30,880 bases of DNA, from IMG/VR virus record IMGVR_UViG_648276660_000001, one strand, 5' to 3'. This document shows positions 6,460-28,298 of the stretch, piece by piece; within the stretch, counting starts at the first letter, position 1, and each line of letters begins with the position of its first letter. Below the pieces are notes generated by a model that was not told the origin of the DNA, searched no databases, and saw only the letters and a program-made list of their open reading frames with translations. Both the position numbers and the translations under genes were made by a program. This DNA comes from a virus. Lineage: Duplodnaviria; Heunggongvirae; Uroviricota; Caudoviricetes.

Positions 6460-6790
6460 ATCAGCAGCAGAGCGCAAAGCCGCTCAGAGAGCCAGACAAG
6501 CTGCATCTGGTGTGCGTAAGCTGGAAATTGTGCTTGATGCTCAGGAAATTGAAATGCTGGAGCGTAACTGCGCCGCCCGGCGCCCTGGTCGCGATCCCTA
6601 TGAAATGGCCGAGTACATCGCGCTGCTGATCCGCCAGGATGATGCACGCGTGCGCGGGCGTATAAAATCGATCAGCAGAAAACGTTGCGGTAAGTGCGGC
6701 GAGAGAGTTCCAGTTAATTCATGCCCGTGTAATGGTGACTCGCAATGCTGGGTGACTAAAGGCTGGCATGAAACGAAATTAATAGTGTGA
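6452..6790 (+). CDS. Hypothetical basic protein with C-terminal Cys cluster (CGKCG...CPC...C); possible DNA-binding or regulatory protein immediately upstream of the late operon
   Basis: ORF with start overlapping the upstream gene end; zinc-ribbon-like Cys spacing in translation; the stop codon lies inside the GTGACATGTCAC palindrome. Confidence 0.6.
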
Positions 6791-6798
6791 CATGTCAC
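6787..6798. repeat. Perfect 12-bp palindrome GTGACATGTCAC, copy 1 of 3
   Basis: Exact string read in sequence; other copies at 9052..9063 and 26595..26606. Confidence 0.9.
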
Positions 6799-6865: not shown

Positions 6866-6875
6866 GCATGGTATT

Positions 6876-6892
6876 ATTACCACAACGGTAAC
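6876..6892. promoter_or_regulatory. Variant copy of the TTACC-N5-GGTAA palindrome (ATTACCacaacGGTAAC) just upstream of the terminase small subunit start
   Basis: Half-sites TTACC and GGTAA separated by 5 nt as in the eight consensus copies, but central flanking bases differ. Confidence 0.35.
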
Positions 6893-6908
6893 AATTACCA
6901 CGGTGGTT

Positions 6909-9051: not shown

Positions 9052-9063
9052 GTGACATGTCAC
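9052..9063. repeat. Perfect 12-bp palindrome GTGACATGTCAC, copy 2 of 3
   Basis: Exact string read in sequence. Confidence 0.9.
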
Positions 9064-18367: not shown

Positions 18368-18831
18368 TGATCGATGTTCAAATTATTCCCGCCACCGAAG
18401 AGCATCTTCAGATGATTTTGCCGGATGTTCGTCAGGCTGATATTGACGAACTGTATGCGGTATCGCTGATGACTACCGAAGATGCGCTGCGTGTTGGTCT
18501 TCGCACTGCGACTATGGCCTGGTCAGGATTTGCGAACGGAGAACTGGTAACCATGTTTGGCGTATCTCCGGCGTCAATGATCGGTGGCAATGGTACGCCC
18601 TGGCTGGTAGGAACCAGCCGTATTGAAAAATATCAGAAGACATTTCTGCGCCACTGCCGCCCTGTATTGCAGCAGATGCTGGCAGTTTATCCGCGCCTGG
18701 AAAACTACGTCGACGAGCGAAACCATGTTGCCAAAGCATGGCTGCACTGGCTTGGATTCAGGCTTGAAGAAGCCGCGCCTTATGGTGCTCTTGGTCTTAA
18801 TTTCCACAGATTTCACATGGAGAGAAAATAA
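18367..18831 (+). CDS. Hypothetical protein at the gp13 position; C-terminus (NHVAKAWLHWLGFRLEE) looks like a GNAT acetyltransferase motif
   Basis: 154 aa; start overlaps upstream stop; the GNAT resemblance is a recalled pattern, not a search result. Confidence 0.55.
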   Translation: MIDVQIIPATEEHLQMILPDVRQADIDELYAVSLMTTEDALRVGLRTATMAWSGFANGELVTMFGVSPASMIGGNGTPWLVGTSRIEKYQKTFLRHCRPVLQQMLAVYPRLENYVDERNHVAKAWLHWLGFRLEEAAPYGALGLNFHRFHMERK

Positions 18832-19376
18832 TGTGCGATCCGGTTATTGCTGGTGGCGCAATGCTCGCCATGAGTGGCATTCAGGCATACACCCAGTACC
18901 AACAGGGAAAGTATGCCTCGAAGGTTGCAGAAGCGAACGCAGATATAGCCACAGCTCAGGCAAATGATGCAATAAACAGAGGTAACGCTGAAGCTGAGCA
19001 ACGGCGCAGAGAGACCCGACAGCGGCTTGGTACACAGGCGGCGACAATGGGGGCTACCGGCGCTGATTTATCTACAGGTAACGCGCTGGATATATTTGGC
19101 GACACTGCCCAGTTTGGCGCTCTTGATTCTCTGACGACGGTGAATAACGCGCAACGCGAGGCTTACGGTTATCAGGTTCAGGCTGCCAACTATAAAGCAG
19201 AAGCCAGTTCAGCCCGTAAACAGGGGAATGTGGGAGCAGCAACAACATTGCTCACTGCGCCTCTGAAGGCATACGGTGCGTACCAGATGTTTGGTGGGAC
19301 GTGGAGTCCGTTTACTCAAAGCACCCCTGCGCCAATCGGAGCAGCAGCAGGAACCAGATTACCCGGAGGATTATAA
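18831..19376 (+). CDS. Internal virion protein B-like (T7 gp14-like), tentative
   Basis: 181 aa beginning MCDPVIAGGAMLAMSGIQA, comparable to T7 gp14 N-terminus MCWAAAIPIAISGAQA (recalled); Ala/Gln-rich. Confidence 0.6.
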   Translation: MCDPVIAGGAMLAMSGIQAYTQYQQGKYASKVAEANADIATAQANDAINRGNAEAEQRRRETRQRLGTQAATMGATGADLSTGNALDIFGDTAQFGALDSLTTVNNAQREAYGYQVQAANYKAEASSARKQGNVGAATTLLTAPLKAYGAYQMFGGTWSPFTQSTPAPIGAAAGTRLPGGL

Positions 19377-23693: not shown

Positions 23694-26168
23694 ATGAGAC
23701 AGGAATGTATACAAGCGGTCCAGCAGGCGGCGCAGCGCACGTTAACGGCGCGAGAAATACAGAACATTGAAGACCGCATTTATCGAAATATGCGCTCCAT
23801 TGCTCGTGATGACCCGATGTCGTGGCGACAACTTTCCGAATCAGAACGGTTGTATCGTGCAGCACAATTGGCATCTGAAGAATTACAGCGAGAAGCGGCA
23901 TTAAAGAAACGTCGTGTGGCCCTCACTATAGCCGCACGTCAGAGATTGGATAAATTTATCAATAGCTATCAAGGGGCTGATGGGAAACTTGGCGCTCTTA
24001 ACCGTACTATTGCTTTTAATGCAGACGGTAAATCGAATTTCCTCTCTGTTGAATCCAGAACAAAAGCCACCCGTGATTATGCATTGAGTCAATTGCAGGA
24101 GGCATTCGAAGCAGTTGATCCTCGCTTTTTTGGTCTGTTTGAAGATGAAGCGGGCGTACGTGACCTGGTATATGAAATGCGGGGGCAAAATACTGGCAAT
24201 GCTAAAGCAAGAAAAGGTGCTAAGGCGTGGAGAGAAGTTACAGAGCTGCTGCGCCGCCGGTTTAATGATGCTGGTGGGGACATTGGCTATCTCGAAAACT
24301 GGGGGATCCCTCAACATCATTCTATGGAAAAGGTTGGGGCGGTATCAAAGGATAAGTGGGTTAGCGATGTTATAGGTAAGCTGGATCGCAAATATTATAC
24401 CCGAGCCGATGGACAACTGATGAACGATGCCGAGTTGTCTGAATTTCTTGGAGAGGCTTATAACACGATCGCTACTGGTGGGCTGAATAAGCTTACTGAT
24501 ACCGGAATGCGAATTTCCGGCGCACGTGCTAACCGTGGTAATGCATCACGACAGATACATTTCAAAGATGCAGATTCCTATCTGCAATATCAGCAACTTT
24601 ATGGCGATCGCTCTCTATGGGAAATCATGGTCGGTCACCTGGAAGGTATCAGTAAAGATATTGCGCTGGTGGAAACATATGGCCCAAACCCCGATCATGT
24701 TTTCCGCTCCCTTCTTGATCAGGTTAAGGCAGAAACGGCAACAGCTAACCCGAGTAAAACCGGTAGCGTCGAGCGTCTGGCGAACAAAACAGAGAACTTG
24801 TACAACTTTATTTCCGGAAAAACACAGCCTGTAGCGAATCCGCACATCGCGCGATGGTCTGACAATATCCGCAACTGGCTGGTTGCCAGCAGACTCGGAT
24901 CCGCGTTGCTGTCATCGTTCTCTGATCTTGGAACCATGTATCTGTCTGCGAAGGTTACCAACCTTCCAATGAACCAGTTATTTCGCAACCAGCTTGAAGC
25001 TATGGACCCAACGAACCGTACAGAACTTGCGCGGGCGCGCCGCGCTGGCCTGGCGATGGAATCTCTACTTGGCAGCGTTAACCGCTGGGCGATGGATAAT
25101 ATGGGGCCGTCTGTGTCTCGTTGGGCGGCAACGGCGGTAATGCGTGCCAGTGGGCTTACAGCATGGTCAGATGCGCACAAGCGCGCCTATGGCGTAACCA
25201 TGATGGGAAGCCTGGGAGAAGTAGTGTCACGGACACCAGACCTTCGTAGCCTCGATGACTCTGATTTTCGTATCCTGAAAAGCAAAGGGATTACTGACAC
25301 AGACTGGAGCGTATGGAAGCTGGCGCAACAGGAGGACTGGGGGAACGGTAATAATACGATGCTGACACCGGAAAGCATTATGCGTATCCCTGATTCAGCA
25401 GTTAAACATCTTGGTGAGCCTGAACGCGTGAAATTTGAGGCAATGCGTAAACTGCTCGGTGCCGTAACTGAAGAAGTTGATATGGCTGTTATTACACCGG
25501 GCGCACGTGAACAGATGTTCGTAGGGTCTGGTCTTCAGCGTGGAACATGGAAAGGTGAATTAACGAGAAGTGTTTTCCTGTTTAAATCGTTCCCTATCTC
25601 GGTAGTTATGCGTCACTGGCATAGAGCTATGGGGATGCCGTCTGCTGGTGGGCGTGCGGCATATATAGCAACGTTTTTAGCAAGCACAACCATGCTTGGT
25701 GCTCTTTCCATGCAGATTACTGATCTTATTAATGGGAGAAATCCAAAAGAAATGACCGGTGACAACATGGTTAAATTCTGGATAAATGCATTTTTAAAAG
25801 GTGGTGGGGCAGGGTTGTATGGTGATTTTCTTTTCTCTGACCACACCAGGTACGGGAGCGGCGCACTAGCGTCGATGCTTGGCCCGGTAGCTGGTCTGGT
25901 TGATGACGTAGTGAAGATTGCTCAGGGCATACCGTTAAATGCTGTGGAAGGGAAGAATGAGCAGACTGGTGGTGATCTGGTTAAGCTTGGGAAAGGTTTG
26001 ATGCCTGGTGCGAATCTCTGGTACTTGAAGGCGGCTCTCGATCACATGATCTTTAATCAGATGCAGGAGTATTTTTCACCAGGCTATTTGCGTAAAATGG
26101 AGCAACGTTCGAAGAAAGAGTTTAACCAGACATACTGGTGGCGACCTCAGGATGTCACTCCGCAATAA
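23694..26168 (+). CDS. Large internal virion/ejection protein
   Basis: 824 aa; last large gene of the late operon before the accessory island. Confidence 0.7.
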   Translation: MRQECIQAVQQAAQRTLTAREIQNIEDRIYRNMRSIARDDPMSWRQLSESERLYRAAQLASEELQREAALKKRRVALTIAARQRLDKFINSYQGADGKLGALNRTIAFNADGKSNFLSVESRTKATRDYALSQLQEAFEAVDPRFFGLFEDEAGVRDLVYEMRGQNTGNAKARKGAKAWREVTELLRRRFNDAGGDIGYLENWGIPQHHSMEKVGAVSKDKWVSDVIGKLDRKYYTRADGQLMNDAELSEFLGEAYNTIATGGLNKLTDTGMRISGARANRGNASRQIHFKDADSYLQYQQLYGDRSLWEIMVGHLEGISKDIALVETYGPNPDHVFRSLLDQVKAETATANPSKTGSVERLANKTENLYNFISGKTQPVANPHIARWSDNIRNWLVASRLGSALLSSFSDLGTMYLSAKVTNLPMNQLFRNQLEAMDPTNRTELARARRAGLAMESLLGSVNRWAMDNMGPSVSRWAATAVMRASGLTAWSDAHKRAYGVTMMGSLGEVVSRTPDLRSLDDSDFRILKSKGITDTDWSVWKLAQQEDWGNGNNTMLTPESIMRIPDSAVKHLGEPERVKFEAMRKLLGAVTEEVDMAVITPGAREQMFVGSGLQRGTWKGELTRSVFLFKSFPISVVMRHWHRAMGMPSAGGRAAYIATFLASTTMLGALSMQITDLINGRNPKEMTGDNMVKFWINAFLKGGGAGLYGDFLFSDHTRYGSGALASMLGPVAGLVDDVVKIAQGIPLNAVEGKNEQTGGDLVKLGKGLMPGANLWYLKAALDHMIFNQMQEYFSPGYLRKMEQRSKKEFNQTYWWRPQDVTPQ

Positions 26169-26177
26169 GGAACAACA

Positions 26178-26591
26178 ATGAAGGAATTATTGCTGTTATC
26201 GGTATTTTTGATATCCGCTTGCTCGACATCCTATGATGTTTATGACGGTGTTGATAAGGCATATTGCGACAAAGTTAAAATGGATTTTTCTCTTGCCAAG
26301 ACGGCGAAGGATAGTTGTATTGATCACTACGTCAAGACTTATACCAAGCCAGCCTCATCGGCATCTGATATTGCTGAAGGTGCTGTGTTTGAGTGTAACA
26401 AGGTGATATCCATCGCAGCGAGTTCTTCATACGATGCTGCTGTATGTGCAATGGCTGAAAGAAACGGCATGTCAGTGCAAAAAATTAATAGCATGATAAG
26501 CAGTAATGACGAAGCCAAAATAAGAACTGATATCAGCTCGGTGAAAAAAGATGCCATGAACAGAGTTGTAAAATATCAGTCATCTTTATAA
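26178..26591 (+). CDS. Putative lipoprotein (cargo gene; candidate superinfection-exclusion or envelope protein)
   Basis: AAGGAA RBS; N-terminus MKELLLLSVFLISAC has a signal peptide with lipobox-like LISA-C; AT-rich relative to neighbours; followed by palindrome copy 3 and a terminator. Confidence 0.65.
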   Translation: MKELLLLSVFLISACSTSYDVYDGVDKAYCDKVKMDFSLAKTAKDSCIDHYVKTYTKPASSASDIAEGAVFECNKVISIAASSSYDAAVCAMAERNGMSVQKINSMISSNDEAKIRTDISSVKKDAMNRVVKYQSSL

Positions 26592-26594
26592 GTC

Positions 26595-26606
26595 GTGACA
26601 TGTCAC
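26595..26606. repeat. Perfect 12-bp palindrome GTGACATGTCAC, copy 3 of 3
   Basis: Exact string read in sequence. Confidence 0.9.
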
Positions 26607-26607
26607 A

Positions 26608-26631
26608 GGCCGCTTTCGCGGCCTTGTTTTT
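26608..26631 (+). terminator. Intrinsic terminator (GGCCGC-tttc-GCGGCC followed by TTGTTTTT)
   Basis: Read in sequence between convergent genes. Confidence 0.7.
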
Positions 26632-26791
26632 AACGAATGCCACCGCCACCCGGGCGGGAATCCGCAGAACGCCCACCGCAGCGGGAGCCGTCAGCAGCAG
26701 TGTCGCTGTCGTGCTGACAACGACCGGCAAAGGCCTGAGTTGAAGCTACCAGAGACAACAAAACGAACAGTGCAGCAAATGCTTTTTTCAT
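26630..26791 (-). CDS. Small secreted peptide (53 aa precursor, about 31-aa Gly/Arg/Cys-containing mature part)
   Basis: Minus-strand ATG at 26791; textbook Sec signal MKKAFAALFVLLSLVASTQAFA with AxA cleavage motif; weak RBS; ORF track gives a longer N-terminally extended version. Confidence 0.45.
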   Translation of the reverse strand: MKKAFAALFVLLSLVASTQAFAGRCQHDSDTAADGSRCGGRSADSRPGGGGIR

Positions 26792-26861
26792 TGTGAAATT
26801 TCCATCTATAAGCCACCTCAATGTGGCGTCAATGAGTGTAGCACTGACTTTTGTTTCGCCC

Positions 26862-26884
26862 ACAAAAAAGCCCGCAGCGCGGGC
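26862..26884 (-). terminator. Intrinsic terminator of the minus-strand two-gene operon (GCCCGC-agc-GCGGGC then TTTTTTGT on minus strand)
   Basis: Read in sequence; hairpin overlaps the stop codon at 26884. Confidence 0.65.
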
Positions 26885-27324
26885 TATTCTTCTTCATCAT
26901 TAAAAAGCGGATTGTTGTTTCCATCTGATGAAAGGAAAGGTATGTGTTCTCTTGAAAATCCAACAATGACAATTTCATTATCATTTTTTGCATAATGAAT
27001 GCATTCATTAGAATGCCTTCCGCCAGGGTTGAAATTTAAGTTAATGGTATAATTCTTAAATGTGTTTGGATACCATGTTGGCCCACAATGATAATGCCAA
27101 TAATTCTCTTGCTCATAATTGTCTGAGCCGGGAATTTTATCATGGTTATCATCAACCCACGAGGGCTTGTTTTTTCCAACAAGCGCCCTTCCATTGGCAA
27201 CATCCTCTAAAAAACTTTGTATGATTTTTATTTCATCATCAGTAAGGAAAGGTCCGTCTACAGCGAAAGGGGTGTTGCTTTCCCCATGTAGAAAACTATT
27301 AGATATTCTAATGTTAAACTTCAA
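26884..27324 (-). CDS. Hypothetical cargo protein (about 146 aa; His/Cys-containing motif WHYHCG ... GGRHSNECIHY), second gene of a two-gene operon
   Basis: Predicted TTG start at 27324 with AGGAG RBS 6 nt upstream; the ORF-track N-terminal extension to 27465 overlaps the upstream small gene in another frame; markedly AT-rich. Confidence 0.5.
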   Translation of the reverse strand: MKFNIRISNSFLHGESNTPFAVDGPFLTDDEIKIIQSFLEDVANGRALVGKNKPSWVDDNHDKIPGSDNYEQENYWHYHCGPTWYPNTFKNYTINLNFNPGGRHSNECIHYAKNDNEIVIVGFSREHIPFLSSDGNNNPLFNDEEE

Positions 27325-27344
27325 GGAAAACTCCTGATGTGCTT

Positions 27345-27512
27345 CTATTTGGAGCGAAATGCCGCCTTGAAGTCGCTGAAAGATGTTCCTGTCTGGTAAA
27401 CCATATCCTTGTCGCGCTCTTTGCTTGCGCGGCCAAGCATAACTTTTCCAATGACATCCCAGCATTGCTTGGCTTGTTCATTGTGCTGAGTACGATTTTT
27501 CAACGCTGTCAT
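27345..27512 (-). CDS. Hypothetical small protein (55 aa), first gene of the two-gene operon; absent from the ORF track (below size cut-off)
   Basis: Hand-translated from minus strand: MTALKNRTQHNEQAKQCWDVIGKVMLGRASKERDKDMVYQTGTSFSDFKAAFRSK; AGGAGG RBS 6 nt upstream of ATG 27512; stop TAG at 27345. Confidence 0.55.
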   Translation of the reverse strand: MTALKNRTQHNEQAKQCWDVIGKVMLGRASKERDKDMVYQTGTSFSDFKAAFRSK

Positions 27513-27523
27513 ATCGCGCCTCC

Positions 27524-27567
27524 TTTACCTTTAAGGTAATAGTACGCTATTCACCCACAGTCTGCAA
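27524..27567 (-). promoter_or_regulatory. Predicted minus-strand promoter (-35 TTGCAG at 27562..27567, 17-bp spacer, -10 TACTAT at 27539..27544) with operator palindrome TTTACCTttaAGGTAAT (27524..27540) at the transcription start
   Basis: Read in sequence. Confidence 0.5.
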
Positions 27568-27611
27568 TCTGTACAGAATTATTTAAAGGCACATCCCTGT
27601 GCCGCCGCCCG

Positions 27612-28298
27612 TCAGAAGAACCCAGCCTTGTCGTTGATGTACTCCGCGTGGGTCTGGATATCACGCAGGCATTTGCTCACACCAACAATGTAGCAGAACA
27701 TGGTGGTCAGCTCCGCCGCCGCGCCCGATACGTCGTGCCCGTCTTCCTGTAACTGGTTCAGCAGATTCATCAGCAGTGAGTTCTCCGTCAGGCCGAGAAC
27801 ACCAGACGGAGAATGAATCAGGCTGCGGTAGCCGGGCTTCAGTGGGGCACTGTAGGTTTTGTTCTCTATCTTCATTGCCTGCATCACTGCTGATGCTGTG
27901 GCGTTGGCTACCTGGTCGGCAACTATCTTTATGCGTTCTTCCTGCGGGAGCGAGTTTTTAATGTAACTTCCGGTGCGGCGGATCTGAGGAAGAACCTCAC
28001 CTGTAACCCATTTACGAAAGCGGTAGGGGATAGTGCCTGGTGTCACTGCGTCGCGGCAGCGGAGGATCAGTGTGTAGAGGCCTGACTCGTTGATAATATT
28101 GGTTTCACCTTGACGGCCTAAGTTAAATTTAGCCCTTTCATCATCATCAAGAGATTTTATTGACATAGTGGGGTTTGTCAGTTGAAGAGCTTTAATAACG
28201 TCTTTGGCAACAAACCAAGGATTTCCATCAATAACAATGGCTCGAATGGTGGCTTCTGATTCAAAATGAAAAACAGATGGGGTTACGTTAGCAGTCAT
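27612..28298 (-). CDS. Antirepressor (Bro-N N-terminal domain plus Ant/KilA-C-like C-terminal domain)
   Basis: Translation contains FHFESEATIRAIVIDGNPWFVAKDVIKALQL, typical of Bro-N/AntA domains (recalled); ATG 28298 with GGTGA RBS 6 nt upstream (GTG at 28307 is the alternative). Confidence 0.8.
   Translation of the reverse strand: MTANVTPSVFHFESEATIRAIVIDGNPWFVAKDVIKALQLTNPTMSIKSLDDDERAKFNLGRQGETNIINESGLYTLILRCRDAVTPGTIPYRFRKWVTGEVLPQIRRTGSYIKNSLPQEERIKIVADQVANATASAVMQAMKIENKTYSAPLKPGYRSLIHSPSGVLGLTENSLLMNLLNQLQEDGHDVSGAAAELTTMFCYIVGVSKCLRDIQTHAEYINDKAGFF

Follow-up and report, generated by a model that had tools for sequence, protein, structure and literature searches.

Two very probably independent accessory genes for predicted envelope proteins in a Uetakevirus prophage of Escherichia coli

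Introduction

Several small phage proteins are exported and counter incoming phage from the periplasm or the outer membrane, including Spackle of T4, Llp of T5 and Cor of phi80 and N15; of these, T4 Spackle is small, helical and disulfide-containing. Morons were reportedly defined by Juhala et al. in 2000 by their own promoter, flanking terminators, deviant composition and presence or absence among relatives. In the temperate podovirus P22, the gene sieA is found between gene 16 and gene 9, and its product SieA blocks DNA injection via the E-proteins gp16 and gp20 (PMC10883804). The locus discussed here lies in a window of 30,880 nucleotides (nt), the whole of the IMG/VR virus record IMGVR_UViG_648276660_000001, which is a Uetakevirus (epsilon15/phiV10-like) prophage of Escherichia coli. 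It consists of a gene for a lipoprotein precursor of 137 amino acids (aa; 26178..26591, + strand) and a convergent gene for a 53-aa peptide precursor (26630..26791, - strand). The slot that holds the lipoprotein gene follows the gene of a gp17-like internal virion protein and has the tailspike gene downstream, which corresponds to the order in P22 (PMC10883804).

A sequence-only reading of this DNA had proposed two convergent cargo genes: an AT-rich one for a lipoprotein with the lipobox LISA-C, appended to the end of the late operon, and one for a peptide with a Sec signal peptide and a 31-residue mature part with two Cys, neither belonging to a family that could be named. These sequence statements all hold; both open reading frames (ORFs) exist, are convergent and carry export signals, and both are accessory genes of the prophage. 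As an overall explanation, the two would be independently acquired accessory genes of a Uetakevirus prophage with both products bound for the envelope, a reading whose chances are about evenly poised. Judged from signal-sequence rules and the conservation of those features, it is highly probable that both genes are real and that their products are exported, and the lipoprotein and the peptide are very probably independent modules. The most noteworthy lead is the conservation of the peptide across phyla.

The peptide and its family

A pattern scan with one genome per species recovered 57 loci with the peptide core, C-x5-D-[TR]-A-[AS]-D-G-S-R-C-G-x-R-[AS]-[AS]-x-x-R-P-G-G-x, in which C, D, A, DGSRCG, R and GG are invariant. 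The core has been found in Enterobacterales, Tolumonas, Vibrio, many Rhizobiales, Rhodoferax, Bacteriovorax, a myxobacterium and nine cyanobacteria, and it is kept at 46% to 65% guanine-cytosine (GC) content in different phyla. The family ORFs are mostly 44-60 aa long and consist of a signal peptide and the core. Lipoprotein-type members are present in Anabaena/Dolichospermum (LIVTSC), in a Beijerinckiaceae genome (LALTAC) and in Bacteriovorax, and several cyanobacteria have the core as a module at the C-terminus of larger secreted proteins, in which no informative Pfam domain was found. Because members are secreted, lipoprotein-tethered or modules of secreted proteins, the core probably works outside the cytoplasm, free or tethered, and this points to a periplasmic site of action. 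In the proteins of Nostoc and Nodosilinea (loci L054 and L059), a shared N-terminal two-Cys motif, L-x-C-[YF]...L-x2-L-C-G-[FY]-V, is joined to the core by a Ser/Pro/Gly-rich linker and has no Pfam match.

The Enterobacterales loci that were examined (L009, L010, L013 and L018) are Uetakevirus-like prophages. Around 44 non-enterobacterial loci, neighbour clustering and a Pfam census detected neither a partner gene that recurs nor families that are hallmarks of phages. Beyond Enterobacterales the core is flanked by unrelated housekeeping genes, and a few alphaproteobacterial copies lie within predicted prophages. The earlier view of the peptide as a prophage-encoded factor is therefore correct in that it is carried by prophages, but not in that it would be specific to them, as the same core is present in the chromosomes of distant phyla. 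Lack of conservation of the peptide ORF would have spoken against that view, and the ORF is conserved, with 38 homologues and the 57 species-level loci. Roughly 8-10% of complete E. coli genomes carry the peptide, the exact sequence is present on at least 1000 public contigs, and 307 IMG/VR contigs contain it.

In the window, the signal peptide is encoded by positions 26791-26726, the mature part by 26725-26633 and the stop codon by 26632-26630. The precursor consists of MKKAFAALFVLLSLVASTQAFA before the predicted cleavage point and GRCQHDSDTAADGSRCGGRSADSRPGGGGIR after it, with the n-region MKK, a 13-residue h-region (AFAALFVLLSLVA) and then STQ-A-F-A, followed by G. The positive n-region, an h-region within 7-15 residues and small residues at -3 and -1 (A-F-A) are the features of Sec export and cleavage by signal peptidase I. 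The mature peptide has 31 aa with Cys25 and Cys38, a mass of 3.06 kDa, an isoelectric point of about 8 and a grand average of hydropathy of -1.19. In the 38 homologues, the mature part is near-invariant (G23, C25, H27, D30, A32 and D34-G49) and the signal peptide drifts; the signal-peptide pattern is kept in these 38 and in 24 further homologues despite the sequence change, and a cleavage-type site, small-x-Ala before Gly, is conserved in all of them. For the core, the proportions of synonymous (pS) and non-synonymous (pN) differences among 21 orthologues, including alphaproteobacteria, are 0.80 and 0.20, and the pN/pS of the gene is 0.15, a pattern of substitution by which the peptide gene is under purifying selection.

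Family searches gave little more than names. The peptide matches PHROG 14503 over its full length (1-53 of 53, E=2.3e-40) and PHROG 3117 (E=4.1e-36), both labelled 'membrane associated protein' with no function, and its RefSeq name is 'transmembrane anchored protein'. No match was obtained in Pfam, NCBIfam or PADLOC-DB 2.0 (E <= 1) or in profile searches of the PDB, and 24 diverse relatives gave only sub-threshold noise in Pfam, NCBIfam and PADLOC. The sub-threshold names in the scans of both window proteins and these 24 relatives were Linker_histone, Spackle, HxsA3, MarB and PhrK. Searches by name, accession and motif found no match for the peptide in the searchable literature. The core crosses phyla, yet Pfam, NCBIfam, the PDB and the searchable literature do not contain it, and, as a 3-kDa peptide is open to synthesis, its target could be found directly.

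The peptide gene as an autonomous module

The promoter and leader of the peptide gene are predicted at 26792..26843 (- strand), with a TGn and -10 element at 26843-26835 (TACACT at 26840-26835), a 5' hairpin, GCCAC-N6-GTGGC, at 26827-26812 and a Shine-Dalgarno-like GGA at 26803-26801. The region upstream of the gene is divergent across 13 genera save for three elements, TAnnnT, a short hairpin and GGA/AGG. TAnnnT is invariant in the 13 genera at 49-44 nt upstream of the ATG, and from such sequence elements the transcription start is inferred. The hairpin keeps its pairing through changes on both sides at 4 of 4 predicted pairs and may be an mRNA-stabilising stem-loop or a regulatory site. Pair changes across the genera (loci L006-L018) include GCCGC/GCGGC, GCTGC/GCAG and GCCGTC/GATGGC.

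Upstream, the terminator of the BRO-N operon (26869..26885, - strand; a 7-bp stem with 6 GC pairs, then TTTTTTG) lies 78 nt from the peptide ATG and isolates the gene from that operon. With its own promoter, terminators on both sides (26885-26869 on the - strand and 26607-26624), a deviant composition (57.4% GC) and presence or absence among close relatives, the peptide gene is, by its sequence features, an autonomous moron between two terminators. The 304-bp module (26593-26896) travels as a unit among different phage backgrounds, and in phiV10 all that is left of the peptide gene is a 3' remnant.

The lipoprotein and the slot behind the gp17-like gene

The lipoprotein gene starts 9 nt past the stop codon of the 824-aa gp17-like gene, has an AAGGA ribosome-binding site and is followed by the late terminator. 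Its GC content is 39.4%, next to 49-51% for the neighbouring structural genes and 49% for the window. The signal peptide is encoded by 26178-26219, and the Cys15 predicted to be lipidated by 26220-26222. The N-terminus, MKELLLLSVFLISAC, has K2, an uncharged hydrophobic stretch, the lipobox L-I-S-A-C ending at Cys15 and a Ser at +2, a residue associated with outer-membrane sorting in E. coli. This agrees with the PROSITE PS51257-type rule, in which a K or R within the first 7 residues and an uncharged hydrophobic stretch are followed by [LIVMFWSTAG]2-[LIVMFYSTAGCQ]-[AGS]-C, with the Cys at 15-35. The automatic UniProt name of the 137-aa protein is also 'Lipoprotein', and RefSeq calls both cargo ORFs (WP_000661385 and WP_000708858).

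The mature lipoprotein has 123 aa with Cys30, Cys47, Cys73 and Cys90 and no hydrophobic segment after the signal peptide. The AlphaFold model is an all-helical bundle with a predicted local distance difference test (pLDDT) score of 85, and of >90 for residues 21-110. Cys30-Cys47 and Cys73-Cys90 are each 17 residues apart on consecutive long helices, a spacing that suggests an antiparallel pair of helices stapled by two disulfides (30-90 and 47-73), and such predicted staples are consistent with a periplasmic, DsbA-oxidised protein. The lipobox Cys and the four further Cys are invariant among six relatives, down to 26% identity. In addition, 32 synonymous and 8 non-synonymous differences separate the gene from its 95%-identical Citrobacter and Enterobacter orthologues (pN/pS 0.07), which indicates that it is under purifying selection.

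The family is tiny, with 17 clusters in an index of 5.8 billion sequences, and a second word-index search with the alignment as query gave no further relatives. An exhaustive HMMER search of 1.84 billion sequences returned 7 representatives and added only four more distant relatives of ~140 aa, of which the three that were aligned are all lipoproteins. The protein matches the function-less PHROG 8691 over its full length (1-137 of 137, E=1.6e-91). Against Pfam, NCBIfam and PADLOC it gave only sub-threshold noise, with no match in PADLOC-DB 2.0 at E <= 1 and a score below the gathering threshold (27 bits) for the T4 Spackle model (PF25676), and no relative of known function was found by sequence or fold. 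Because no sigma-70-like promoter was found upstream of the gene, the lipoprotein is probably made together with the late proteins. The gene is fused to the late operon, with no promoter of its own detected, and does not form a promoter and terminator unit of the moron type.

In the prophages that carry it, the lipoprotein gene always lies 2-9 nt after the gp17-like gene. This position is kept even in Cedecea, where the lipoprotein is 55% identical and the adjoining gp17-like protein only 24%. Among 80 IMG/VR contigs with the identical peptide, the slot contains this lipoprotein in 11, a 98-aa protein with multiple transmembrane (TM) segments in 20, a different lipoprotein (LLVGC) in 5, a 186-aa secreted protein in 6, a 123-aa secreted protein in 1, a 113-aa TM protein in 1 and a 33/46-aa two-TM protein like phiV10 gp21 in 3; in about 31 contigs there is no gp17-like gene within 5 kb (the TL-2011b type, with Arc/Ant adjoining the peptide gene). 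These are at least seven unrelated envelope-targeted types, and family scans of the alternative cargos found none with an assigned function; phiV10 itself carries a slot gene different from that of the window. The lipoprotein gene thus sits in a hypervariable slot, with the last ejection-protein gene before it and the tailspike region after it. The prophage with the secreted 123-aa slot protein (IMG/VR locus L107) has a gp17-like protein of just 26% identity. Between this slot protein and the lipoprotein, hhalign gives a weak alignment of 42 residues (probability 27%) in which both Cys match up, and the 123-aa protein could be a remote relative that is not lipidated.

In epsilon15/phiV10-like prophages, the slot that follows the ejectosome genes can be seen as a natural library of uncharacterised envelope proteins. 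If these are exclusion factors, they would open new ways to study how the ejection proteins of podoviruses traverse the periplasm and would be relevant to the host range of phage therapy in E. coli.

Proposed functions

The lipoprotein would be translated as the last cistron of the late/ejectosome operon and exported through Sec; lipidation would take place at Cys15, and the Ser at +2 would direct the protein to the outer membrane. As a helical bundle facing the periplasm, it could there interfere with the DNA delivery or the productive adsorption of related phages. An exclusion role of this kind may be proposed because the gene has a position equivalent to that of P22 sieA and because the envelope proteins of the slot are diverse; by this analogy it is a serious possibility, though less likely than not.

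The peptide would be transcribed from its own sigma-70 promoter with the 5' hairpin, exported through Sec and cut after AFA, yielding a 31-aa hydrophilic, near-neutral product with a Cys25-Cys38 loop. In the periplasm, this product could bind or inhibit a component that diderm envelopes have in common, and it would thereby benefit the fitness of the lysogen and not act as a phage-specific block. That the peptide is released into the periplasm and binds such a component is put forward tentatively. Equally tentative is the broader proposal that it belongs, as a phage-captured representative, to a cross-phylum class of micro-proteins not described before. These would be exported by Sec, have ~27 residues and one predicted disulfide loop, and act, either in free form or tethered to lipid, on an envelope component that diderms share. 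If this is true, the ~20 near-invariant residues, kept from E. coli prophages to rhizobia and cyanobacteria without a partner gene, would reflect binding to a universally conserved periplasmic target. Because distant phyla also carry the core on their chromosomes, next to unrelated genes, the peptide is likelier to have a general role in the envelope or in fitness than one in phage-specific exclusion.

Several points weigh against these proposals. The functional roles of both proteins are inferred, and signal cleavage, lipidation and disulfides are predicted from sequence. With no promoter of its own found, production of the lipoprotein may be confined to late infection, an uncommon timing for an exclusion protein that protects the lysogen, and the lipoprotein is far more conserved than the neighbouring ejectosome protein, which argues against tight co-evolution. 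In the AlphaFold prediction of the peptide, only the signal helix is confident, and the mature part (pLDDT 49-65) has no stable fold. In addition, the peptide gene of phage phiv142-3, orf11, is absent from the list of genes significantly up-regulated in serum, a table that is uninformative as to whether orf11 is expressed at all (PMC7724020).

Alternative explanations

The two genes could instead be a functional pair that stays together as one cassette in convergent orientation, such as a receptor or immunity lipoprotein with a secreted ligand or toxin. The genes are indeed adjacent and convergent, share one terminator region and both have products predicted to be exported. Their distribution largely refutes it and leaves the pair very improbable: only 11 of the 80 contigs with the identical peptide carry the lipoprotein, so that co-occurrence is limited to a minority of prophages, and among 5426 complete E. 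coli genomes the lipoprotein gene is present in 22 and the 304-bp peptide module in 537 (422 at >= 80% coverage). Furthermore, in the lipoprotein prophages of Cedecea, Citrobacter and Enterobacter the terminator is immediately followed by a BRO-N or pRha gene, with the peptide gene absent, and the peptide family has no lipoprotein partner outside Enterobacterales. Each gene occurs without the other, and their adjacency is coincidental. Even less probable is that the 53-aa ORF is not a protein gene at all and that a non-coding RNA, a terminator-associated element or the opposite-strand ORF at 26600-26743 is the conserved feature. Such a reading would suit a short, GC-rich ORF of low complexity with a weak Shine-Dalgarno sequence between two terminators, whose RNA folds somewhat better than shuffled sequences (z = -2.4), but Rfam gave no match above threshold. 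In the core of 13 enterobacterial orthologues, all 25 of the 25 third-codon positions vary with the amino acids kept (pS 0.72, pN 0.11), and because of this the reading frame is fixed and a non-coding element and the opposite-strand ORF are excluded. Preservation of the core over the range of GC contents given above, and of the physico-chemical pattern of a signal peptide whose sequence drifts, argues in the same direction.

With two separate protein genes, the question becomes what each product does. The peptide might stay anchored by an uncleaved N-terminal helix and, acting at the periplasmic face, modulate a sensor kinase or transporter in the manner of MgrB, as its database name 'transmembrane anchored protein' and an architecture of an N-terminal helix with a short, two-Cys periplasmic tail would suggest; the lipoprotein-tethered family members also indicate that membrane proximity is compatible with its function. 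This is rather unlikely, as the hydrophobic core has only about 13 residues, the small-x-Ala site before Gly, typical of cleaved signal peptides, is conserved in all homologues, and the N-terminal sequence varies freely, unlike a functional TM segment. Slightly less likely still is that the peptide is a superinfection-exclusion factor against incoming phage. Its prophage location between the ejectosome and tailspike genes, its presence in the 307 IMG/VR contigs and a plausible autonomous expression in the lysogen would fit such a role, but the same core lies in non-phage chromosomal contexts in Rhizobiales, cyanobacteria and others. Moreover, the E. coli peptide is 100% identical in prophages with differing slot cargo and with gp17-like proteins of 24% to 100% identity, and for this reason it is not in an arms race. 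For the peptide, MgrB-like anchoring and phage exclusion are thus less likely than release into the periplasm. For the lipoprotein, the main rival of exclusion is a role in the fitness or virulence of the lysogen like that of Bor, Iss or TraT, for instance in serum resistance. Many carriers are avian pathogenic or extraintestinal pathogenic E. coli (APEC or ExPEC) or clinical isolates, lambda Bor is a precedent for a lipoprotein moron in the late region, and the neighbouring phiv142-3 orf10, part of a 146-aa ORF, has been reported to raise serum resistance (PMC7724020). However, the lipoprotein has no similarity to Bor, Iss, TraT or any other family, no promoter of its own was detected, and its strict position behind the ejectosome genes would be left unexplained, so that this role is unlikely, if less so than the two alternatives for the peptide.

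Further candidates for the peptide were rejected. A lasso peptide (Gly1-Asp8) does not agree with the non-conserved N-terminus and the lack of maturation genes, and a bacteriocin or microcin does not agree with the lack of immunity or export genes and a peptide that goes to the producer's own periplasm. For an arbitrium-like signal there is no receptor gene, and the family occurs in non-phage contexts. In a Bowman-Birk-like protease inhibitor loop the Arg-Ser would be within the disulfide loop, and here it lies outside.

Genomic context and the palindrome

Region 26000-27600 is 100% identical to E. coli chromosomes, e.g., NZ_CP033635, and parts of it are 96-99% identical to the phages phiv142-3, HEMP4, phiV10 and TL-2011b. 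According to the RefSeq and phiV10 annotations, the window has the epsilon15/phiV10 gene order, with terminase, portal, capsid and tail genes first, followed by the internal virion proteins, a short variable region, a leftward BRO-N operon and a tailspike gene that runs off the window end. Both cargo genes sit within the variable region. The internal virion set comprises a T7 gp14-like protein (18831-19376, upstream of the 824-aa gene) and three large proteins, the last being the 824-aa gp17-like ejectosome protein (23694..26168, + strand), which matches phrog_684 (virion structural protein, E=0) and equals phiV10p20. Its gene is the last structural gene ahead of the cargo slot. The convergent 3' ends of the two cargo genes are separated by a 38-bp spacer with the terminator hairpin at 26607-26624. 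This Rho-independent terminator of the late operon (26607..26632, + strand) has a 7-bp stem with 6 GC pairs followed by TGTTTTT, and its T-run overlaps the peptide stop codon.

The leftward BRO-N operon (26884..28298, - strand, from the RefSeq coding-sequence table) contains the BRO-N protein gene (27612-28298, Pfam Bro-N E=5e-20), a 55-aa ORF (27345-27512) and an AT-rich 146-aa ORF (26884-27324), all on the - strand. These three neighbouring ORFs gave no match in PADLOC-DB 2.0 at E <= 1. The 146-aa ORF lies directly upstream of the peptide gene, has 35.6% GC and phrog_5954 as its sole family match, and contains phiv142-3 orf10 by a primer match. For orf10, a 17-fold induction by serum has been reported, and it is said to aid serum resistance and K1 capsule gene expression; this adjacent ORF is the only part of the region touched by published work (PMC7724020). 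Its position is held by other genes in TL-2011b and EC.W1-9, and the TL-2011b gene is annotated as a YafO-family toxin.

A perfect 12-bp palindrome, GTGACATGTCAC, is found at the right edge of the cargo slot, in the spacer (26595..26606). The window has three exact copies (6787-6798, 9052-9063 and 26595-26606), where by our estimate about 0.004 would be expected by chance, and each lies between the stop codon of an accessory gene and a rho-independent terminator. The palindrome is conserved at junctions in phiV10, TL-2011b, epsilon15 and prophages of Kluyvera, Klebsiella and Buttiauxella, with divergent flanks, and it is also where each of the alternative slot cargos ends. The GenBank record of phiV10 was opened mid-way through one copy. 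The palindrome could serve in protein binding, in the exchange of modules or in packaging, and, conserved at cargo junctions, it may explain the gene exchange in these slots. It is not the epsilon15 repressor operator, which differs (ATTACC-N5-GGTAAT). A sequence resembling that operator, ATTATTACCACAACGGTAACAATTACC, is present at 6868-6900, just before the small-terminase gene, and in epsilon15 such sites are annotated as repressor-binding at the equivalent place.

Comparison with known systems

Prophage accessory genes for envelope proteins are a well-known kind of feature, and the two families found here are uncharacterised ones. Like P22 SieA, the lipoprotein is a predicted envelope protein of a temperate podovirus, and its gene likewise follows the last ejection-protein gene and precedes that of the tailspike. 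SieA, on the other hand, is a multi-pass inner-membrane protein with the motif FxRYPxEAxxFNK that is expressed from the prophage, whereas in the window protein, a lipoprotein, no further TM segment, motif, sequence relation or promoter was found; by these sequence features it is not a SieA homologue. The peptide gene fits the layout of the lambdoid morons, such as lambda bor and lom, but its product of 31 aa belongs to an unrelated cross-phylum family, and its expression in the lysogen is only predicted. The anchor implied by the label of PHROG 14503 and PHROG 3117 and by the RefSeq name is unsupported by the sequence of the peptide.

Within its Cys-Cys-bounded, extracytoplasmic mini-domain, the stretch D-[TR]-A-[AS]-D-G-S-R-C-G of the peptide resembles the DxDxDGxxCE calcium loop of Excalibur and EF-hand-like domains, with Asp1, Asp5, Gly6 and Cys9 in register. 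Unlike in Excalibur (PF05901), two ligand positions are missing, with an invariant Ala at position 3 and an invariant Gly at position 10, and the first Cys lies 5 residues upstream rather than about 28. Pfam gave no match at E <= 10 in 24 members and none for the window peptide, and membership was rejected on the missing ligand positions and the lack of a hidden Markov model match. In overall architecture, the peptide can be compared with MgrB, which is about 50 aa long and combines a hydrophobic helix at its N-terminus with a short tail in the periplasm that bears two essential Cys. It differs from MgrB in having no sequence relation to it, a conserved signal-peptidase site, a fully hydrophilic tail, and a distribution that is cross-phylum and often phage-borne.

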